Source of the DNA: Candidatus Sulfomarinibacteraceae bacterium
GTDB taxonomy: Bacteria; Acidobacteriota; Thermoanaerobaculia; Thermoanaerobaculales; Sulfomarinibacteraceae
Assembly (NCBI GenBank): GCA_963733915.1
Contig: CAVTEP010000004.1
Span: forward strand, 112,758-176,757
Reading direction: 5' to 3'
DNA length: 64,000 nucleotides
The position numbers were made by a program, and so were the translations under genes. The stretch's first letter is position 1, and the number at the start of each line of letters is the position of its first letter. This document shows, one piece after another, positions 10,456 through 19,475 of this stretch. The notes below the pieces were generated by a model. It ran no database searches. It was not told where the DNA came from and was given only the letters and a program-made list of their open reading frames with translations.

Positions 10456-11643
10456 GTGACACGCCGACGGATCAACCTCGCAACATTGCTCATCGCCACC
10501 GTGTCACTCGTCATCGGCTGCCAACCACCGATCACACAGACCTCCAGCACCGAGGTGGCCCTGCAGACGCTCGTCGACCGGGCCGTGGCCGACCACGAGC
10601 TCGTCCACGCCGCCGCCCTCCACGTCGATTCGCCCGCATCCGGTCTCGTCTGGGAGGGCGCCGCCGGAGCGGCCGACCCCGATACCGGTTCGGTGATGAC
10701 CGCCGCCACCCCGGTCCGGATCGCGAGCAACACCAAGACCTTTATCGCGGCCACAATCCTCCGTCTGGCGGAGGAGGGACGGCTCGGCCTCGACGACCCG
10801 ATCACAGCGCACCTGCCTGAAAACCAGGTCGGTCTGCTCCGGGCGGATGGCTACGATCCCGAGAAAATGACCGTCCGCCACCTCCTCACGCACACCAGTG
10901 GTCTTTACGATCACTCGCAGGGGGATCGCTACGGGGAGGAGATTCTGGCCGACCCCAACCACCGGTGGACCCGCGACGAGCAGCTCACGGCGGCGGTCGA
11001 GTGGGGTGAACCTCAGGCCTCGCCGGGCGAGGTCTACACCTACTGCGATACCGGCTACATCCTGTTGGGCGAGATCGTCGAACAGGTCGCGGGCCGGCCG
11101 ATGGCCGCCGCGGTGCGCGAGATCATCGGCTTTGACCGGCTCGGGATGAACTCGACCTGGTGGGAAACCCTCGAGCCGGCGCCGCGAGGCACGCCCGAGC
11201 GCGCGCACCAGTATTTTGGCGAGGTCGACACCACCGGCTTCGACCCCTCCTTCGACCTCTACGGTGGCGGCGGCCTTGTCTCCACGGTCGGTGATCTGGC
11301 CCGCTTCTACCGCGCCCTTTTCAACGGCGGTGTGTTCGCCAGTCCTGACGCCGCGGCCTCGATGCTGACCACCATCGACGGCGTGCGGGCGCTGCCCGAT
11401 GCGGGCGAAACCGACCTGCCGCCGGGCGCCTACCGGATGGGGGTGTGGGTGGTCGAGGTCGAGGGTCTGAGTACGTACCGCCATACCGGTTTCTGGGGCA
11501 CTCTCGCGACCTACGTTCCCGAGCTCGACCTCACGGTGACCGCGACCGTCAACCAGAACCAGGGCCGGGCGGCGCTCGAAGGGATGGTTCGCGAGGCGAT
11601 CGAGATCATGCGCTCACAGCACGTTGTGGGTGATCCAGTCTGA
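10456..11643 (+). CDS. Serine hydrolase, beta-lactamase/transpeptidase-like family, lipoprotein
   Basis: GTG 10456 after GGGAG. Lipobox LVIGC, SxxK motif (SNTK), HLLTHTSGL. The upstream part of track ORF 9556-11643 is an antisense shadow of the 7786-10299 gene. Confidence 0.8.
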   Translation: MTRRRINLATLLIATVSLVIGCQPPITQTSSTEVALQTLVDRAVADHELVHAAALHVDSPASGLVWEGAAGAADPDTGSVMTAATPVRIASNTKTFIAATILRLAEEGRLGLDDPITAHLPENQVGLLRADGYDPEKMTVRHLLTHTSGLYDHSQGDRYGEEILADPNHRWTRDEQLTAAVEWGEPQASPGEVYTYCDTGYILLGEIVEQVAGRPMAAAVREIIGFDRLGMNSTWWETLEPAPRGTPERAHQYFGEVDTTGFDPSFDLYGGGGLVSTVGDLARFYRALFNGGVFASPDAAASMLTTIDGVRALPDAGETDLPPGAYRMGVWVVEVEGLSTYRHTGFWGTLATYVPELDLTVTATVNQNQGRAALEGMVREAIEIMRSQHVVGDPV

Positions 11644-12411
11644 GGTCTCCTCGATCGAGCGGTTGGTGACGTCGACGGTGTGGATCGCGGGGATACGCGA
11701 GTAGATACTGTCTGCGTAATCGATCTCGGCGAAGATGTGTGACCGGTTCGAATAGCCGGGGATCCTCGCGCTGTGGCGGCTCGCCCGGTCGGAGCGCAGC
11801 TTGACCTGGCGATCGAGCTCCATCCGGAACCCGACCTTCGGCACCGACAGCTCCGTGACCTCGTCGGGAAGCGGCACGTCGAGGATGATCGGGATGTTGG
11901 CCACCTTGAGCTTGCGGCACGAGAGGAAGATGCTGGTGGGCGTCTTGCCCGTACGCGATACCCCGAGAATGATCAAATCCGCTTGATGAAGGGTTTCGAT
12001 TCCGGCGCCGTCGTCGTGTCGCAGCGTGTAGTGAATGGCCTCGGTCACGAGGTAGGTCTCCTCGCTCTGGCTGCGGAATACTCCCGGGGTCCGGCTCGGC
12101 GCCGATTCGAGGACCTTCGAGAAGATATCCATCAACGGGCTCATCACGTCCACCACCGTCAGGTCCTTGGCGCGACCGTGGCGAATCATCGCGTCGGCGA
12201 GCTCACGCGACACGAAGGTGAAGACGATGATGCAGGCGCCCGCCGGCGCCTCTGCGACGACCTCCTCGACCTGGGCCTCGGTGCGGACGAATGGAAAACG
12301 CCGGATGTTGGACTCGGCGCCGCCGAATTGGACCAGGGTCGAGGTCACGACCGCCTCGGAGGTGGCGCCGGTAGCGTCGGACACGATAAAGATATTGAGC
12401 GGCTGTGCCAT
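11614..12411 (-). CDS. ppsR: Pyruvate,phosphate dikinase / PEP synthase regulatory protein (bifunctional kinase-pyrophosphorylase)
   Basis: IFIVSDATGATSE N-terminus and GVSRTGKTPTS P-loop. Start ATG is the complement of 12409-12411. Confidence 0.85.
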   Translation of the reverse strand: MAQPLNIFIVSDATGATSEAVVTSTLVQFGGAESNIRRFPFVRTEAQVEEVVAEAPAGACIIVFTFVSRELADAMIRHGRAKDLTVVDVMSPLMDIFSKVLESAPSRTPGVFRSQSEETYLVTEAIHYTLRHDDGAGIETLHQADLIILGVSRTGKTPTSIFLSCRKLKVANIPIILDVPLPDEVTELSVPKVGFRMELDRQVKLRSDRASRHSARIPGYSNRSHIFAEIDYADSIYSRIPAIHTVDVTNRSIEETSDWITHNVL

Positions 12412-12445
12412 GGTCGGCGGCTCCCGGCCGGAAGGGGACTGACGG

Positions 12446-13390
12446 CTACTCCTCCCAAGCCTCCCACAGCATCTTCTTGAGAGTGCGGGCGACGGCGTCG
12501 AGGAGGTGGGCGTCATTGTCGGTGAGGTTTCTGGCCGAAATGGTCAGCTCGGGTGTGATCCGCGCCCGGTGCCAGCTCTCGGTGGTGCCGCGATTGCGGC
12601 GTGGGACATTGAGCACCCGTTGGAGTCGGGCGAGCGACCAACCCAGCCTCTCCTGCGGATCGATGGCATCGAATCCGTTGTGCCCGCCTGCCTCGCCACC
12701 CACGTCCGCGGAGGCCGGTGGATTGTCGGGTTTCGCCTGCTCGTACCTGAGCGGGCGTGGAACCACCTCCGGGTCGTCGGGCTCCTGTGCGGCGGGTTTG
12801 GGGGTGACGGAGGGAGTATCGGCCATGTGTTGTACCTCGTTGGGATCAGTCAGCGAATCGCCGAATGTCATCTCGTCCGGGTCGTCGATCACGACCTCGT
12901 AAAATTCGCCGGATGCCTCGGGGTCAAAGGCGGGCTGCACGATCGGCACGTGCATCGTGTCCAGGGCTTCGATCGTTCTGACGGCCGAACCGTTCGACCC
13001 GTTCCCGCCGGTGTTATCCGAATGTACCGGTTCCGCCCTGGCCGGCACCGGTCCGTCGCCCGCCACGGGCTCGGGGGAAGCGCCGACGTCGACCACCGGC
13101 AGCGGCTCTTCACCCTTGACCATGTCCGCGATCGTCTCCGGGCGTACGCGCTCGAGGATGTCGCGAATGTCTTTGAGGCTCAGGTTACCGACCTCTCCGT
13201 GGTCCTGTTTTTCCCGGATCATCTTCACGAACAACAGCCGATCGAGAAAAGTCTGCGGGTATCGGGTGCGCGGCCCCCGCCGGCCGACTTTTGGCAGCAG
13301 CCGTTTCTGGACGTAATAGGCGATGGTCCGCCGGTCAAAACCGCTCCGATTTTCGACTTCTTCCATGGTGTAGGTGCGGGTGATGGGCAT
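12446..13390 (-). CDS. MerR-type HTH domain protein with long low-complexity acidic/proline-rich middle region
   Basis: N-terminus YTMEEVENRSGFDRRTIAYYVQKRLLP looks like a MerR-family HTH; the rest is unrecognised. Confidence 0.55.
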   Translation of the reverse strand: MPITRTYTMEEVENRSGFDRRTIAYYVQKRLLPKVGRRGPRTRYPQTFLDRLLFVKMIREKQDHGEVGNLSLKDIRDILERVRPETIADMVKGEEPLPVVDVGASPEPVAGDGPVPARAEPVHSDNTGGNGSNGSAVRTIEALDTMHVPIVQPAFDPEASGEFYEVVIDDPDEMTFGDSLTDPNEVQHMADTPSVTPKPAAQEPDDPEVVPRPLRYEQAKPDNPPASADVGGEAGGHNGFDAIDPQERLGWSLARLQRVLNVPRRNRGTTESWHRARITPELTISARNLTDNDAHLLDAVARTLKKMLWEAWEE

Positions 13391-13396
13391 GTATCA

Positions 13397-13426
13397 AAAA
13401 TACCAATTGTGCACAACTTCTGTCAA
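13397..13426 (-). promoter_or_regulatory. Promoter TTGACA-18-TATTTT ending 6 nt before the ATG (leaderless architecture)
   Basis: Minus-strand reading of 13391-13426; no Shine-Dalgarno between the -10 and the ATG at 13390. Confidence 0.45.
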
Positions 13427-13548
13427 TAACTGTTGAAAAATCAAACAACTGTCATTGGGCTGGCAACAGCTGTCGAAAGCGGCCTGCGGCCCTTGATTTG
13501 AGGGCTAAGATCTTCGGTCCGTTCGGCTTGCGCGACCTGCGGGCGAGT

Positions 13549-14217
13549 TCAGCCCTCTTCCGTCCCCGAGTAGCGCTTCGCCATGTCGCGGACGACGTGC
13601 ACCGCGACGCCGACGTGGTGCCAGCGGTCCGCTTCGTATGGCACCGGCGGGTAATTGCGGTTGGAGGCGATCAGCAGCAGGTCCTTTTTGTCGCGCACCA
13701 GACGGCGCGCCATCGGCTCGCCGTCGAGATAGCCGACGACGATCCGGCCCGGCTTGGCCTCGAGCCTGGAATCGATGATCAGGTGGTCGCCCGGATACCA
13801 GTCGGGGATCATGATTTCCTCTTCCGCCCTCACCAGCAGGTAACGACCCGAGATCGGCGGCAAACGGAAGACCTTGACCAGCACCGACTCCCGGTGGACC
13901 CGAAGCTCGGCGGTCGGGGTATCGATGCCCGACGGATCGCCTGGTCTGCCGGAGTAGTACCGGATGGAAAAAAAGCTTTCGTCTCCACCCGCGAGAGAAG
14001 CGCACAGGTCTGGAAAGAGGGCGCACGGCGATTGGCCGAGGGCCTCGAGGAGCCGCTCGATCTGCAACCAGCTCGGGCTCACGTCTTCACGTTCATACTT
14101 CGACAGCAGGCTCTGGTCCATGCTCGCGGCATCGGCCAGTTCGGCCTGGGTGACGTCGAGCGATTCGCGGAGGTCCCGCAAGCGTTGTCCAAAACCGAGT
14201 GCGCTGGCTTTTCTCAT
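13549..14217 (-). CDS. XRE-family HTH repressor fused to an S24 (LexA/CI)-like C-terminal domain
   Basis: HTH (FGQRLRDLRESLDVTQAELADAASMDQSLLSKYE) plus an S24-like core (IMIPDWYPGDHLIID ... GRIVVGYLDGEPMARRL). Track ORF starts at GTG 14223; ATG is at 14217. Confidence 0.75.
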   Translation of the reverse strand: MRKASALGFGQRLRDLRESLDVTQAELADAASMDQSLLSKYEREDVSPSWLQIERLLEALGQSPCALFPDLCASLAGGDESFFSIRYYSGRPGDPSGIDTPTAELRVHRESVLVKVFRLPPISGRYLLVRAEEEIMIPDWYPGDHLIIDSRLEAKPGRIVVGYLDGEPMARRLVRDKKDLLLIASNRNYPPVPYEADRWHHVGVAVHVVRDMAKRYSGTEEG

Positions 14218-14297
14218 GCCCACCTCAATTCGTTTGGCTAGATCTTACATCGGATTGGGAGCAGATCGGCGGATGTCGAGAAATTCCTCGTGCTCTC

Positions 14298-14326
14298 TTG
14301 CATGGTTAAAAATTATATGGTACTAT
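14298..14326 (+). promoter_or_regulatory. Sigma70-like promoter TTGCAT-17-TACTAT for the tandem paralogue pair
   Basis: Lies in the AT-rich divergent intergenic region 14224-14380. The downstream ATG 14381 has RBS GGAGGA. Confidence 0.5.
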
Positions 14327-14380
14327 TTGCTCTAGGTGGAAAATCAACAGGTTATTTATAACAATGTGCACGGAGGATCG

Positions 14381-14908
14381 ATGAGCATTTGGTCCGCGTT
14401 CGTCAAATCAATAAATAAAAAAGGCGGCGAGCCCGTCGCCAGGGCCGCAGGCGTCCTCAAGGATGAAGGCGGCTGGTACTACGAGGAGTCGCAGAACTTT
14501 TCGAGCTCGCAAAGCACGGTTCGTGTCGAGCAGCGGCGGCCCGGCAGCTGGGAGGTCCGGAAGTCGTCGTGCGGGATCATGGGCCTTAACGATCGTGATC
14601 GCCGAACCGGGGTGGCACGTTTTTTTGCCGGTACCTACCGGTGGCTGCGGCTCGAACGCGAAGCACGAGGTTCGCTGGCCGGCAATGTCATCAAGATCGT
14701 CGGTACATACCGCGACAAGGCCGGCAAAGAGCATGCAACACTCCTCGGTTTCCTCGACGAGGAGTTGGCCGAGGAGCTCGAAGGGCAGGACGTCCGCAAT
14801 CTGTGGGGTCGGATTCGGTTCATCAAGTTTCCGATCCCCGGCCGCGACTCCAGGTATCTGGTGCGGTTCGATCTGATGGAAAATTCGAGCCCGAGACACA
14901 ACGGGTAA
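14381..14908 (+). CDS. Hypothetical protein, HIRAN-like C-terminal domain (paralogue A)
   Basis: Start moved to ATG 14381 (RBS GGAGGA; N-terminus MSIWSAF parallels MKFWSSIF of paralogue B). Shared motifs GWYYEES, RPGxW, FFAGxxRWLRxERE, IKIxGTY, LGxxxxExA, LWGRIR. Confidence 0.6.
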   Translation: MSIWSAFVKSINKKGGEPVARAAGVLKDEGGWYYEESQNFSSSQSTVRVEQRRPGSWEVRKSSCGIMGLNDRDRRTGVARFFAGTYRWLRLEREARGSLAGNVIKIVGTYRDKAGKEHATLLGFLDEELAEELEGQDVRNLWGRIRFIKFPIPGRDSRYLVRFDLMENSSPRHNG

Positions 14909-14926
14909 TGGCAGACGGAGAGGCCA

Positions 14927-15502
14927 ATGAAATTCTGGTCATCTATCTTTGGTCCCAGGCCCAAGGTGCAGGATTCCCTCGAGATCAGGCCCTCAGGGCT
15001 TCTCATGGATGCCGACGGATGGTACTACGAGGAGTCGCTGGACCCTGATTGTCCGCAGCGATCCATCCGCGTTCAACAGGACCGTCCGGGCGACTGGTAT
15101 GTCCGCAACACCAATTGTCGGATTGCCGAGCTCAACAGCCCCTCTCGCGCCGACGAGGTCCTCGGTTTCTTTGCGGGGTCATTCCGGTGGCTGCGCTTCG
15201 AACGCGAGACGGGCAATGGACGAGGCGACGCCATCAAGATCATCGGCACCTACCTCGATCAGGACGGAGCGACCTGCGAGTCCAACCTGGGCTATGTCGA
15301 GCCGGAAAATGCCGTAGCGCTCGCGGACAAGGACGTCGAGCGCCTGTGGGGACGTATCCGCTGCATCAGACCCCCCGGCCGCGGCCGGCAGCCGACCTTT
15401 TGTCTTCGCTATGATCTCTTGATCGAACTCGACGAGAAGATCTTCGGTGATGACAAGACCGTCGATGCCCGGCCGGACGACTTCCTTCCAGCTGCGCCCT
15501 GA
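14927..15502 (+). CDS. Hypothetical protein, HIRAN-like C-terminal domain (paralogue B)
   Basis: 191 aa, colinear with paralogue A over about 140 aa. RBS GGAGAGG upstream. Confidence 0.65.
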   Translation: MKFWSSIFGPRPKVQDSLEIRPSGLLMDADGWYYEESLDPDCPQRSIRVQQDRPGDWYVRNTNCRIAELNSPSRADEVLGFFAGSFRWLRFERETGNGRGDAIKIIGTYLDQDGATCESNLGYVEPENAVALADKDVERLWGRIRCIRPPGRGRQPTFCLRYDLLIELDEKIFGDDKTVDARPDDFLPAAP

Positions 15503-15519
15503 TTTGTCGTTCCCATCCA

Positions 15520-15652
15520 CACTGTGCCTCGAGATGCCCGCACCACGAATTCTCTCGAAAAACCGAGGGGAAATTGTGGTGCAGCCGTCCCGCCTGCATA
15601 TTTGCCTTTTCATCGATTCGAACTGTGCGCTGAGACGCTTGCACCACAAAGA
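15520..15652. repeat. Three degenerate copies of the GTGCGGGCG-hairpin (REP-like) family
   Basis: GAGATGCCCGCACCACGAA, ATTGTGGTGCAGCCGTCCCGCCTGCA and GTGCGCTGAGACGCTTGCACCACAAAG, compared with the intact copies at 24.1, 43.2, 43.9 and 45.6 kb. Confidence 0.6.
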
Positions 15653-15824
15653 AACGGGTCTGATCTTCGATCCCCGTGATTGAGGATTCATCTCAAAATT
15701 TCAGACCAACTGATTCTAAAATACTGAAAATCCAAACGTTAGGTATTGATGACGGGAATGGGATCGGCCACAATCGGGTTGCTTCGCACGATACTCACGA
15801 CTCGAAGGTGGAGGATCCCGGGAC

Positions 15825-17033
15825 ATGTCGACAACCGAGCCTCGTTTGTGCAGCAAATATCTGAACGCCATGGTTCCGATCACGGTCGCGACGATCGTCA
15901 TGCTGTCGGGTTGTTCACGGTCGGTTGAACCCCCGCCGGCGATCTCGCTGGTGCAGGAATTCTCGGCCGCCGAGGTGTCCGAATCACCGATCCGGCTGCT
16001 CGACTTCCCGGACCTCGAGTGGCGCTTCGACGGCGAGTCCCCGCTCGCCCCGAAGGAGAACGCCGGTGCGACCGTCGGCTGGTCGGCTTTCAACGACATC
16101 ACGGATCTCGGAGTCAACGATGGTCGGCTCGAGGGCCGCGCGGGGGACATGCCGATCCTCATGGTGGACGTTCCAGAGGATGCTTTCCCCAAGGACCGGC
16201 TGTGGGCCGTCGAGCTCAAGCTCCGTATCTCGGCCGGATCGAAGCTCGGCATCGATACCTTTCGTGACGACGAGGTCGACAAGGACGATTTTCTCAAGGA
16301 CCTCGAGGAGACCGGCCAGTCGGCGTACATGATCGATCTCCGACCGGGCGATGACGTCGCGACCTACACGCTGACCGAGAGCAATGCCACCTTTTCCAAG
16401 ATGGAGGCGATCGGCGGCCTCAAGCACATCGCCCTGCGCTTCGTCGATGCTGACGGCGCCGACTTCGCGCTCGAGTCATTCCGCATCATCCCGCGCACCG
16501 AGCACCTCGCCGGAGTGCCGGCAGGGGTCAGCTGGCAGGGCCTTGCAGGCGTCTTTCGCGAAACCCTGGTCGCGCGGGCGCCCGAAAAATTGACCTGGCA
16601 GCAGGATCTCGGCGAGCGGCCGTGGCTCGATCTCGCCATCGGTACACCGGACAACCACCCCATCGTCTTCAGGGCCGAGGTCGCGAGCCCGGGGCGCGAG
16701 ACGATTATCCGCGAGCGCACCATCACCGCCGGCGACCGCTGGGAGCCCTTCGCCGTCGATCTCGAGGAGCTTGCCGGCCGCCAGGTGACTCTGACGCTCT
16801 CGCTCGCCTCCGACGAGGACGGGCACATCGGCTTCTGGGGCGCGCCGGCCATCCGCCATCGCGGCGCCCGGCCCGCGGTGATCCGAGCCGTCCACCGCCC
16901 GCTCAGCGCTCGGCCCGGAAGGCCCACCGCGCGGCGTCATCGTCATCGTCGCCGACACCCTGCGTTCCGATCACCTCGAGGCCTGGGGCTACGAACGGCC
17001 TACTGCGCCGACTCTCGCCGCCCTCGCGACTGA
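15825..17033 (+). CDS. Lipoprotein N-terminal domain of a sulfatase-fold protein; 3' ~150 nt are out of frame (frameshift)
   Basis: Lipobox MLSGC. Sensible sequence runs up to ...DGHIGFWGAPAI, then Arg-rich nonsense. The sulfatase-fold frame opens at 16882. Confidence 0.6.
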   Translation: MSTTEPRLCSKYLNAMVPITVATIVMLSGCSRSVEPPPAISLVQEFSAAEVSESPIRLLDFPDLEWRFDGESPLAPKENAGATVGWSAFNDITDLGVNDGRLEGRAGDMPILMVDVPEDAFPKDRLWAVELKLRISAGSKLGIDTFRDDEVDKDDFLKDLEETGQSAYMIDLRPGDDVATYTLTESNATFSKMEAIGGLKHIALRFVDADGADFALESFRIIPRTEHLAGVPAGVSWQGLAGVFRETLVARAPEKLTWQQDLGERPWLDLAIGTPDNHPIVFRAEVASPGRETIIRERTITAGDRWEPFAVDLEELAGRQVTLTLSLASDEDGHIGFWGAPAIRHRGARPAVIRAVHRPLSARPGRPTARRHRHRRRHPAFRSPRGLGLRTAYCADSRRPRD

Positions 17034-17085
17034 GGGCACCCGCTTCGCCGACAACATCTCTCAGGGCGCGTGGACCAAGATCGCG

Positions 17086-18294
17086 GTGCCGTCGCTCTTG
17101 ACCTCGCTCTACGCCTCCTCACACGGCATCTATGACATCCCGCACAAGATTCCGGCATCGGTCACCACCATGACCGAGGTCTTTCGCGATGCAGGCTACG
17201 CGACCTTTCACACATCGTCGGTCCTCTTCTCGGGTAAGAACAGCAATCTTCAACAGGGAGTCGAGGTCCTCCACGAGCGCGAGTCCATCGACGAGCTCGG
17301 CGAGTACCAGTCAAAAACCTCACGCACCTACGTTGACCGGTTGTTGCCGTGGCTCGAGGACCACAGCGAAGAGCCCTTCTTCGTCTTCCTGCACGTCTTC
17401 GATCCCCACAGCCCGTTCCGTCCCATGCACCCCCATGACACGCGCTGGATAGCCGGCGACGCGGTCGCCGAGCACGAGAAACACCTCGAAAAGGTCAACG
17501 ACATCGTCAAGGTCTTTCACCACCTGCCGAGCGCCGAGCAGCTCGCCGAGGCCGAGGTCGACGCCGATGTCTTCCTCAGAGCCGAGAAGGCGTGGTACGA
17601 CGGCTCGATCCGGGCCATGGACTATGAGATCGCCCGCCTCCTCGAGCGTCTCGAAGAGCTCGGTCTCCGTGACGACACCCTGATCGCGTTCGTCGCCGAC
17701 CACGGCGAGGAGTTTCTCGAGCATGGCAACCACTGGCATGGCCACTCCGCCTACGGCGAGCTGGTCAACGTGCCGATGTTCGTGACCTGGCCGGGTGTGG
17801 TGCCGCCGGGTCTGGTGATCGACCGGACCACCCAGTCCATCGACCTCATGCCGACCTTGCTCGAGCTGGCGCAGCTGCCCGTGCCCGAGATGGCGCAGGG
17901 CGAGAGCCTGCTGTCGTTGATGGCGGCGCCCGATGATCCCGCGACACTCGGTTGGAACCGGCGCGCGGTCTTCACCGAACGCCGGAACCCGCCCTTCGAG
18001 GCTACAGAGGGGACGGCGGACTCCTTCGCCGTCATAGCCGACGGATGGAAGCTGATCTGGAACGTGGTCGTGCGCGACGACCGGCCGGAGATGGAGCTCT
18101 TCGACCACCTCGGCGATCCGCTCGACCGGGTCAACATCGCCGACCAGCATCCCGAAGTCGTTGCCGACCTCCGGCTCGAGCTCGAGCGCTGGCGTGAGAT
18201 GACCGAGGCCGAAAAGGTGAGCGCCGATGGCGAGGGCGCCGAGATCGACCCCGAGGAGCTCGAACAGCTCCGCGCGCTCGGGTATGCCGACTGA
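17086..18294 (+). CDS. Sulfatase-fold (alkaline-phosphatase superfamily) hydrolase domain, continuation of the previous gene
   Basis: This frame is open from 16882 and encodes GVIVIVADTLRSDHLEAWGYERPTAPTLAALATEGTRFADN upstream of the track start. Motifs FLHVFDPHSPF and ADHGEEFLEHGNHWHGHS. The position of the usual CxPxR formylglycine motif reads TKIAV. Confidence 0.75.
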   Translation: MPSLLTSLYASSHGIYDIPHKIPASVTTMTEVFRDAGYATFHTSSVLFSGKNSNLQQGVEVLHERESIDELGEYQSKTSRTYVDRLLPWLEDHSEEPFFVFLHVFDPHSPFRPMHPHDTRWIAGDAVAEHEKHLEKVNDIVKVFHHLPSAEQLAEAEVDADVFLRAEKAWYDGSIRAMDYEIARLLERLEELGLRDDTLIAFVADHGEEFLEHGNHWHGHSAYGELVNVPMFVTWPGVVPPGLVIDRTTQSIDLMPTLLELAQLPVPEMAQGESLLSLMAAPDDPATLGWNRRAVFTERRNPPFEATEGTADSFAVIADGWKLIWNVVVRDDRPEMELFDHLGDPLDRVNIADQHPEVVADLRLELERWREMTEAEKVSADGEGAEIDPEELEQLRALGYAD

Positions 18295-18685: not shown

Positions 18686-19060
18686 TCAGGCCTTTGGGTT
18701 GAGCAAACGCCAGGTGATGGCGCGGACTTGATCGAAGGTATCGAGCACGGTCGTGGCGCTTCGTCCATCAACGACACCAGCCTGAACCAGGAGGCGAAGG
18801 TGGCTGTCGACCTCCTTGGCTGAGCCGTAGGCGATCCTCCAGAAGTGCTGCCGGTCCCTCCCGGTCCGGCCGTGCCCTTCCGCCAAGTTGGCGGGGACCG
18901 AGCTTGCCGACCGGATCACCTGATCGGCGATCGATTTCAAAGGGGCCGGAACCCTCATCACAAGCTTGATCGCAATGCCAGCCGCGTCAAGGGCTTTCGA
19001 GTGGGCAACGAGGTTGGGTTTCGTGAGCGCGTCGGTCATGTTCACCTCCAGGTTGTTCAT
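18686..19060 (-). CDS. Four-helix-bundle protein (23S rRNA-intervening-sequence / S23 ribosomal protein family)
   Basis: QVIRSASSVPANLAEGHGRTGRDRQHFWRIAYGSAKEVDSHLRL matches the family signature (R-A-x-S-I/V-x-x-N-I/L-A-E-G ... GS-x-x-E). Start at MNNLEV (19060), or alternatively MTDALT (19039). Confidence 0.75.
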   Translation of the reverse strand: MNNLEVNMTDALTKPNLVAHSKALDAAGIAIKLVMRVPAPLKSIADQVIRSASSVPANLAEGHGRTGRDRQHFWRIAYGSAKEVDSHLRLLVQAGVVDGRSATTVLDTFDQVRAITWRLLNPKA

Positions 19061-19475
19061 GCCCTTCCCCGAGCCGGTGAGGCGGCCGATGTCAGGGGTG
19101 CGAAGCACCGGGCCCCTGGCCCGGCTTGCCCTTGACATCGTCCGACCACCGGCTACTTCTCGCACTGAACGACCCGGAGGTGAACATGCCGTCGTCACGA
19201 CCCGTGCTCGCTGCCCCGGCCGCTGCCGCGGACGCTGTTCACTGCCCCTGCGGTCGGTCGCTGTTCCTGTCGCTGCACATGCCAATCGGAACTTCCGAAA
19301 CCCGATCCCATCAAATTCCGGATGAGCCGAACGTTCCAGGACAATACCTGACGAGCCAACCGGCGAAAAGCGCTGCGCCCGCGGCACGATCCCGGCGCAC
19401 AGGGTACAATCGGGCGGTCAGCCCGAAGAGGCGTCACAGTATCCAGCCCGAACAGTATCGTCAGGGAGGTCGAGG

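Follow-up and report, generated by a model that had tools for sequence, protein, structure and literature searches.

A chromosomal cassette of the Sulfomarinibacteraceae couples a CI/LexA-like regulator lacking the S24 catalytic dyad to divergent HIRAN-like proteins

The 64,000-nt stretch of DNA analysed here (the window) comes from Candidatus Sulfomarinibacteraceae bacterium (assembly GCA_963733915.1, contig CAVTEP010000004.1, positions 112,758-176,757 of the forward strand), and it carries a small cassette in which a CI/LexA-like regulator gene is arranged divergently from two tandem genes for HIRAN-like proteins. An earlier, sequence-only reading of the stretch had proposed three open reading frames (ORFs), and all three are present, at 13549-14217 (minus strand), 14381-14908 and 14927-15502 (both plus strand). 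The first encodes a 222-aa regulator with an N-terminal XRE-type helix-turn-helix (HTH) and a C-terminal S24-like domain without its catalytic dyad; the ATG start at 14217 agrees with the orthologues, whose sequences begin MRKAS. The plus-strand genes encode two divergent HIRAN-like proteins, paralogue A (175 aa, isoelectric point (pI) 9.75, HIRAN-like core at approximately nt 14561-14881) and paralogue B (191 aa, pI 4.8, core at approximately nt 15107-15430, with an acidic C-terminal tail). Since A and B are only 18 bp apart and each has its own GGAG-type ribosome-binding site, they are consistent with a single operon. The cassette has the same GC content as the window (63.6%), and the GC content at third codon positions (GC3) of A and B, at 0.73, is slightly under that of the neighbouring genes (0.78-0.86).

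The HTH domain of the regulator (residues 9-64; 14026-14193, minus strand) matched Pfam HTH_31, with an E-value of 6.7e-13, and HTH_3, and it is almost invariant among orthologues. The C-terminal domain (residues 123-212; 13582-13851, minus strand) covers positions 32-116 of the Peptidase_S24 profile (PF00717; E 8.5e-12 over residues 123-206, 45 bits against a cutoff of 23.3), and residues 124-212 were matched by HMMER to solved UmuD/UmuD' chains at E ~5e-6. Nearly the full length of the protein also matched PHROG 4, “transcriptional repressor”, at E 1e-19. An N-terminal DNA-binding domain joined to a C-terminal S24 fold, encoded divergently from the gene or genes under control, is likewise the arrangement of the LexA, lambda CI and UmuD type of regulator (MEROPS family S24) and of HdiR and PrlP. 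The sequence-only reading had suspected that the S24 motif SMxP reads IMIP in this protein and that the position of the catalytic Lys reads ARRL, and the UmuD alignment bears this out. Specifically, G-D-S60-M of UmuD stands opposite E-E-I135-M of the regulator, and T-V-K97-K-L opposite M-A-R171-R-L. The nucleophile position (UmuD Ser60, LexA Ser119) is thereby occupied by Ile135 (codon 13813-13815, minus strand), and the general-base position (UmuD Lys97, LexA Lys156) by Arg171 (codon 13705-13707, minus strand). A global MAFFT alignment moves the first dyad site, yet no Ser falls there either.

The same replacement is seen throughout the family. In a set of 72 full-length homologues (45-96% identity), the Lys column holds Arg in 71 sequences and Lys in none, and the Ser column holds Ile (41), Val (10), Thr (9), Ala (6), Met (2), Ser (1) or Trp (1), with a hydrophobic residue (I, V, A or M) at the nucleophile position in approximately 60; no dyad was found at shifted positions. 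The linker of the window protein reads LAGG, the orthologues read HLG[DSET] at the same place, and no Ala-Gly or Cys-Gly scissile bond is conserved in the linker of the aligned orthologues. Unlike LexA, CI and UmuD, then, the family carries Ile, Val, Thr or Ala for Ser and Arg for Lys, with no conserved Ala-Gly, so that the self-cleavage chemistry that defines the S24 family is absent. On these sequence grounds, the regulator is a non-peptidase S24 homologue, and its S24-like domain, having lost both Ser and Lys and having no conserved Ala-Gly, would be incapable of self-cleavage by the Ser/Lys mechanism known from LexA, CI and UmuD; the suggestion that RecA-type self-cleavage seems impossible is upheld to that extent. 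LexA, for comparison, is regulated precisely by self-cleavage. The XRE-S24 regulator PrlP of S. suis works through active self-cleavage as well (PMC12273997).

It could be argued that the regulator has remained an S24 protease and cleaves itself with the help of substitute residues, as the Ser position holds Thr in nine of the 72 homologues and Ser in one, and the linker of the window protein does contain an Ala-Gly. However, a nucleophile position that is hydrophobic in most members, a base position that never holds Lys, and a linker Ala-Gly that gives way to HLG[DS] in the orthologues leave this idea scarcely credible. The motif D-x-M-I-P-D-W-Y-P-G-D that flanks the dyad site is almost invariant across the 72 homologues. 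That the dyad is missing family-wide while MIPDWYPGD and the HTH are nearly invariant indicates that its loss is ancient and fixed and that the non-catalytic domain is still under purifying selection.

When one genome was scanned for each GTDB species, 13 loci were recovered which, together with a metagenomic locus (L001) and the window, make 15 distinct loci. Those from the scan belong to metagenome-assembled genomes of Ca. Sulfomarinibacter, Sulfomarinibacteraceae or Thermoanaerobaculia, save for one 4-kb contig labelled Chondromyces that is probably mis-binned. In all 15, a regulator orthologue lies divergently upstream of a member of the HIRAN-like family, at a distance of 156-184 bp everywhere except in L001, where the gap is 307 bp. 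The tandem pair A and B is found in four (the window, L005, L006 and L007); L001 has a single B-type gene, and the remaining loci have a single A-type gene. Regulator orthologues are 70-96% identical across related loci, and the regulator is better conserved than its target (70-81% versus 35-73%). One orthologue (L016:4104-4765) is broken by frameshifts, and the Kinase-PPPase gene adjacent to it also aligns in pieces; these interruptions probably reflect poor assembly rather than gene decay.

The flanks of the cassette are made up of housekeeping genes in partly syntenic order, including a Kinase-PPPase gene, a MerR-like gene, a sulfatase gene, an FHA gene and a gene of beta-lactamase fold. 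No integrase, cro-like gene or other phage gene was found near the cassette, no repair gene is linked to it, and neither the regulator family nor the HIRAN-like family has relatives in IMG/VR viral contigs. Peptidase_M78 is missing from the cassette and its neighbours, and a HipA-family kinase and a HipS-like domain are missing from the cassette and its flanks. The cassette looks like a vertically inherited chromosomal module rather than a recent mobile insertion. A prophage relic, which had been put forward as one possibility, is not evident in a family-restricted chromosomal module with housekeeping flanks and no integrase nearby.

More distant relatives of the regulator are found in other settings. 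For example, a 47%-identical dead-dyad homologue (P0325, with MVPDWVPGD and MVRRL; L020:1-5727) occupies the position of a prophage CI, with an integrase downstream and divergent HTH_17, AAA_24 and PDDEXK genes upstream, which suggests that non-cleavable S24 repressors also serve as phage immunity repressors. In another example (L019:1-6355), an XRE-S24 regulator that is 61% identical and also lacks the dyad is flanked on one side by BREX genes (BrxE, BrxA and BrxB, plus four small unrecognised ORFs) and on the other by a NERD/UvrD-type helicase gene, and it may regulate a defence island. Neither locus has a HIRAN-like gene detectable with the A1 and A3 profiles, and the link between regulator and HIRAN-like protein is thus limited to a close clade (at least 70% identity). 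Members of the wider HIRAN subfamily are likewise found in prophage accessory positions. These homologues, together with the slightly low GC3 of A and B, would fit a domesticated prophage or defence remnant, in which a CI-type immunity repressor has been kept with accessory genes for an anti-phage or superinfection-exclusion role. Such an origin is nevertheless decidedly improbable for the cassette itself, given its housekeeping flanks free of integrase, cro-like and phage genes, a synteny conserved across at least 13 species-level genomes, the lack of any PADLOC or PHROG match for A and B, and the absence of both families from viral contigs.

The two HIRAN-like proteins are indeed tandem paralogues, as had been claimed, with 43% identity over 166 aa (E 1e-45). 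The sequence motifs that they were said to share all occur in both, and across 111 family members most of these motifs vary little or not at all. Among the invariant positions are W32, E36, Q51, R53, P54, G55, W57 and C64, and further along F81, W88, G122, W141, R143 and D163. A and B had no match in Pfam, NCBIfam, PADLOC or PHROGs. A search of 5.8 billion proteins returned 135 homologues of B, all of them unnamed. A-type orthologues, at 50-65% identity, occur in 14 of the 15 distinct loci, L001 being the exception. The B-type proteins are acidic (family median pI 4.9), and an acidic tail at the C-terminus, in which the motif R-x-E-D-F-L-P is conserved (15431-15502 in the window), is confined to them, the A-type proteins ending right after the core. 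This tail is reminiscent, in style, of acidic protein-interaction tails such as the C-terminus of the single-stranded DNA-binding protein SSB.

The C-terminal ~100 aa of A and B had been described as HIRAN-like, and this holds at the level of sequence profiles. With a family profile built from the 111 members, a search of 1.84 billion representatives brought up, outside the family, approximately 120 distant proteins at E-values of 1e-15 to 1e-3. Pfam HIRAN (PF08797) was detected in 101 of the 116 distant proteins that were scanned, and in those inspected it spans exactly the stretch that aligns to A and B (in P0136, for example, the profile covers residues 188-281 and HIRAN residues 234-282). 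When compared with hhalign, the family profile and that of these intermediates matched with 99.75% probability (E 3e-27, 160 columns), and the intermediates' profile in turn matched the solved HIRAN domain of human HLTF (4S0N, 5BNH, 4XZF) at E 6e-6. A direct hhalign comparison of the family with HLTF HIRAN is weak (P 0.001-0.003) and follows the same register, in which WLRFERE...AIKIIG...LGYVEPENAVAL of the family stands opposite MVALQRDPNNPYDKNAIKV...VGHLKKELAGALA of HLTF. The HIRAN ancestry of A and B is thus supported transitively, by profiles, but a direct Pfam HIRAN match was found for neither protein at E <= 1, and two Foldseek searches against the PDB were without a match.

Structure prediction gives a well-defined model of B, with a predicted local distance difference test score (pLDDT) above 90 over residues 24-167 in the AlphaFold2 model and of 91 in a core-only model. 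The elements run, after a three-stranded N-terminal extension, in the order strand, inserted helix, three strands, helix and two strands, an order that we take to be compatible with the HIRAN topology of the HLTF structures. Searches with the A1 profile against PDB sequences gave noise only (E ~1), and a Foldseek search of the full model against BFVD was also rejected, its best E-value being 0.02 and its top entries a phage “ATP dependent helicase” and “DNA polymerase III alpha” with template modelling (TM) scores of 0.35-0.49.

The N-terminal ~60 aa had been called unrecognised, and part of this region proves not to be unique to the family, since it is common to distant bacterial HIRAN relatives. 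A short motif, M-S-[IL]-[WF]-S-x-[IL]-F-G, opens both paralogues (14381-14410 and 14927-14956) and recurs in distant HIRAN relatives of unrelated organisms as MSIFSKLFG, SLWSALFG and MSLFSMLRG (P0146, P0142 and L018:713-1369). It is predicted to be disordered (pLDDT <50), and this peptide could be for targeting, a degron or partner binding.

In human HLTF, the HIRAN loop P-N-N-P-Y93-D94-K-N holds the 3'-OH of DNA, and Arg71 and Tyr72 stack on the bases. Asp94, Tyr93, Arg71/Tyr72 and Asn90/91 are reportedly the pocket residues with assigned roles, as described by Kile and by Hishiki and their colleagues in 2015. The family shares with HLTF a homologous core, the register of WLRFERE...AIKIIG...LGY.E.E.A..L and, judging from the predicted models, the order of strands and helices. 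Unlike HLTF, it has a hypervariable loop between ERE and AI where the P-N-N-P-Y-D-x-N pocket loop would be, a helix inserted after the first strand, a three-stranded N-terminal extension, and acidic B-type members. Of 79 B-type sequences, 60 have Gly in the column of HLTF Asp94, where the A-type has G, A, S or T; the other columns differ as well, in that the one of Tyr93 is variable and those of Arg71/Tyr72 hold Asn or Ser. DNA-contact motifs of HIRAN domains have been summarised elsewhere (PMC8262856). Given the degenerate state of the canonical 3'-OH pocket motif and the acidity of paralogue B, classical DNA 3'-end binding by A and B is doubtful, and the recognition of 3' DNA ends that the sequence-only reading attached to the domain does not transfer to them. 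In this family, the HIRAN fold seems to have acquired a new conserved surface.

If A and B retained the classical activity, they would bind single-stranded DNA 3' ends or reversed forks, as effectors of a RecA-independent damage regulon under a non-cleavable repressor. The HIRAN homology itself, the basic character of paralogue A and the invariance of several Arg and Trp residues are in keeping with this, and genes divergent from LexA-type regulators are often damage-inducible. The rewritten pocket columns, the hypervariable loop, the acidity of the B-type proteins and the lack of linked repair genes point the other way, and we consider a classical role fairly unlikely.

The region from which both transcription units would be controlled was described beforehand as AT-rich and approximately 160 bp long; it measures 163 bp (14218-14380) and has a GC content of 43.6%, against 63.6% for the window. 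An alignment of the 15 orthologous intergenic regions revealed three phylogenetic footprints. Footprint 1, TAGATCTTACAT (14239-14250; family consensus TAGGGnAGATCTTACAT), consists of columns more than 90% conserved, at a distance of 22 bp from where the regulator gene starts. Its minus strand presents a TAAGAT hexamer resembling a -10 element, followed by the regulator's ribosome-binding site, and it is a candidate for the regulator promoter and/or auto-operator. Footprint 2 is an extended -10, TGGTAnnAT (14318-14326, plus strand; TGGTACTAT in the window), that is kept in 13 of 15 loci. It belongs to the candidate promoter of the HIRAN-like operon, which the sequence-only reading had called a good promoter, TTGCAT-17-TACTAT. 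This promoter is present at 14298-14326 on the plus strand (TTGCAT 14298-14303, a 17-nt spacer, and TACTAT 14321-14326), and its extended -10 is conserved, but the -35 is not, and a simple sigma-70 consensus scan omits the promoter because TTGCAT fits TTGACA at only three of six positions; the word “good” is therefore justified only in part. Footprint 3, GGTTATTTATAAC (14350-14362), is a conserved block with an imperfect palindrome, GGTTA-N4-TAAC (family consensus ATTTTTAAC(C)). This block falls within the predicted 5' leader, approximately 25 bp beyond the -10 in the downstream direction, and is a candidate operator.

Footprints 1 and 3 each have a single exact copy in the 64-kb window and no convincing extra copies there, so that the window gives no sign of a wider regulon. 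No repeats were found within the window's intergenic region, and an Rfam scan of 13000-16000 returned no RNA family. An inverted repeat that would link the -10 with footprint 3 was rejected as a family feature, as it beats shuffled sequences only in L009, L015 and L016. It is the architecture of this region that points to repression of the operon and to autoregulation.

More remote members of the HIRAN family prompt one idea of how such a repressor might be relieved. Two proteins recovered with the same profile, P0247 and P0168 (L021:4001-5020 and L022:4001-5047), combine an ImmA/IrrE-type Peptidase_M78 domain (E 2.8e-21 in P0247) with a C-terminal HIRAN domain, and the L022 fusion occupies an ImmR/ImmA-like position beside IstB/DnaA-like replication genes. 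The M78 (ImmA/IrrE-type) protease class inactivates XRE repressors, and the fusions suggest that HIRAN may act as the sensor module of anti-repressor proteases. Small ORFs beside the fusions were scanned for an HTH and gave only a weak Cro/YdaS-like signal. By analogy, the relatives found in prophages, beside BREX genes and in M78 fusions hint that the cassette arose from the circuitry of lysogeny and conflict or is tied to it. In the cassette itself, one or both HIRAN-like proteins might likewise respond to stress or to a nucleic-acid signal and inactivate the regulator by binding to its dead S24-like domain, in place of RecA*-driven cleavage and with positive feedback on their own operon. 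The occurrence of the fusions in mobile-element-like contexts, the strict one-to-one co-occurrence of regulator and target, and the retention of the surface motif D-x-MIPDWYPGD despite lost catalysis would all suit such a loop. It is, however, argued purely by analogy, a sensor repressed by its own target would need basal expression, and the M78 fusions are distant from the A/B family (E 1e-4 to 1e-7); we regard it as quite unlikely. Its specific form, in which a HIRAN-derived sensor that binds the dead S24 domain would replace autoproteolysis and so create a RecA-independent switch, with the M78-HIRAN fusions as the mechanistic parallel, is decidedly unlikely too.

Known switches frame these alternatives. 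As in ImmR/ImmA, DdrO/IrrE and CapH/CapP, an XRE-type repressor would be inactivated here without relying on its own catalysis, and distant relatives of the HIRAN-like family form the C-terminal domains of M78 proteases (P0247 and P0168). Unlike these systems, the cassette has no M78 gene in or beside it, and its repressor has an S24-like C-terminal domain that ImmR, DdrO and CapH do not possess. The HipN and HipL proteins of Hip kinase modules offer another parallel, in that a bacterial HIRAN serves there as an accessory or regulatory module beside an HTH-containing system; the cassette differs in having neither a HipA-type kinase nor a HipS-like domain. HipN and HipL are themselves bioinformatic predictions, and according to Gerdes et al. 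(2021, PMC8262856) the majority of their HIRAN domains have kept the larger part of the motifs that contact DNA.

The interpretation that we prefer, at a little better than an even chance, is that of a vertically inherited chromosomal cassette peculiar to the lineage of Ca. Sulfomarinibacteraceae (Thermoanaerobaculia, Acidobacteriota). Its CI-like repressor, no longer proteolytic, would control HIRAN-like effectors of remodelled form and would be induced by a route other than RecA-type self-cleavage. The analysis establishes how the genes are built, that the dyad is dead, that A and B are paralogues, that they have HIRAN ancestry at profile level, and that regulator and family strictly co-occur in synteny; repression, the operator positions, the induction route and the effector function are inferred. 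The CI/LexA-type repressor would bind the 163-bp divergent control region through its XRE HTH and shut off the neighbouring operon, which encodes one HIRAN-derived protein or two; it would probably repress its own gene as well. Its S24-like domain, deprived of Ser nucleophile, Lys base and conserved Ala-Gly site, may have been kept as a dimerisation and/or signal-receiving module. Derepression would then have a cause other than RecA-stimulated autoproteolysis, for instance binding of a ligand or partner protein, or cleavage by another protease in trans. The HIRAN-derived proteins, with an N-terminal beta extension, a hypervariable loop swapped in for the 3'-OH pocket loop, newly fixed Trp, Arg and Cys residues that are invariant, and one acidic paralogue, would most likely bind a ligand other than that of classical HIRAN domains.

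Several observations weigh against this interpretation. Thr at the Ser position in nine of the 72 regulator homologues, and Ser in one, leave residual chemistry possible in a few family members, as Arg can occasionally serve as a base. Per-locus inverted repeats are inconsistent, and no palindrome common to all 15 intergenic regions was found. Foldseek searches of the PDB with both the full and the core-only B models returned no HIRAN and no other significant match, so that the fold assignment is one made from sequence profiles. Finally, a mobile-element origin or a conflict-related role is possible, given the prophage- and BREX-linked homologues of the regulator.

The surroundings of the cassette hold some further features. 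Directly downstream of the regulator is a 314-aa MerR_1-family gene (12446-13390, minus strand) with its own promoter (TTGACA-18-TATTTT, 13397-13426); a homologue adjoins the regulator in L001, L010, L011 and L016, and this gene may be a functional neighbour of the regulator. The Kinase-PPPase ORF, as listed at 11614-12516, has 71 bp in common with the 3' end of the MerR-like gene, and its true start is probably further downstream because homology begins only at residue 32-42. The sulfatase gene downstream of B (15825-18294) is split by a frameshift between ~16865 and 16936, such that the 819-aa orthologue of L004 aligns over residues 32-344 in frame 3 and then over residues 368-819 in frame 1; it is either a pseudogene or an assembly error. 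Finally, the ORF at 18686-19387 (minus strand) encodes the domain of 23S rRNA intervening-sequence proteins (PF05635, E 2.6e-15), and its long N-terminal extension may be an artefact of an upstream start codon.

Non-catalytic S24 homologues and bacterial HIRAN proteins are already known as kinds. What is new here is the particular HIRAN-like family, with a pocket that has been remodelled, members duplicated in tandem, and a strict coupling to a repressor without the dyad. The cassette extends the LexA/CI (S24) regulators by a clearly non-catalytic clade that is under purifying selection, and this raises the question of what induces a CI-like repressor that would be incapable of self-cleavage. 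It also defines an unannotated and narrowly distributed HIRAN-derived family in which the DNA-end pocket has been rewritten and which is strictly coupled to its regulator. Should the coupling not be functional, the cassette would represent a lineage-specific regulated operon in uncultured sediment Acidobacteriota, useful mainly for annotation. Should the HIRAN-like protein prove to be a sensor or anti-repressor, it would provide a role for the stand-alone HIRAN domains of bacteria, none of which has been experimentally characterised in the literature we found, and it would constitute a new bacterial route of stress or DNA-damage signalling.

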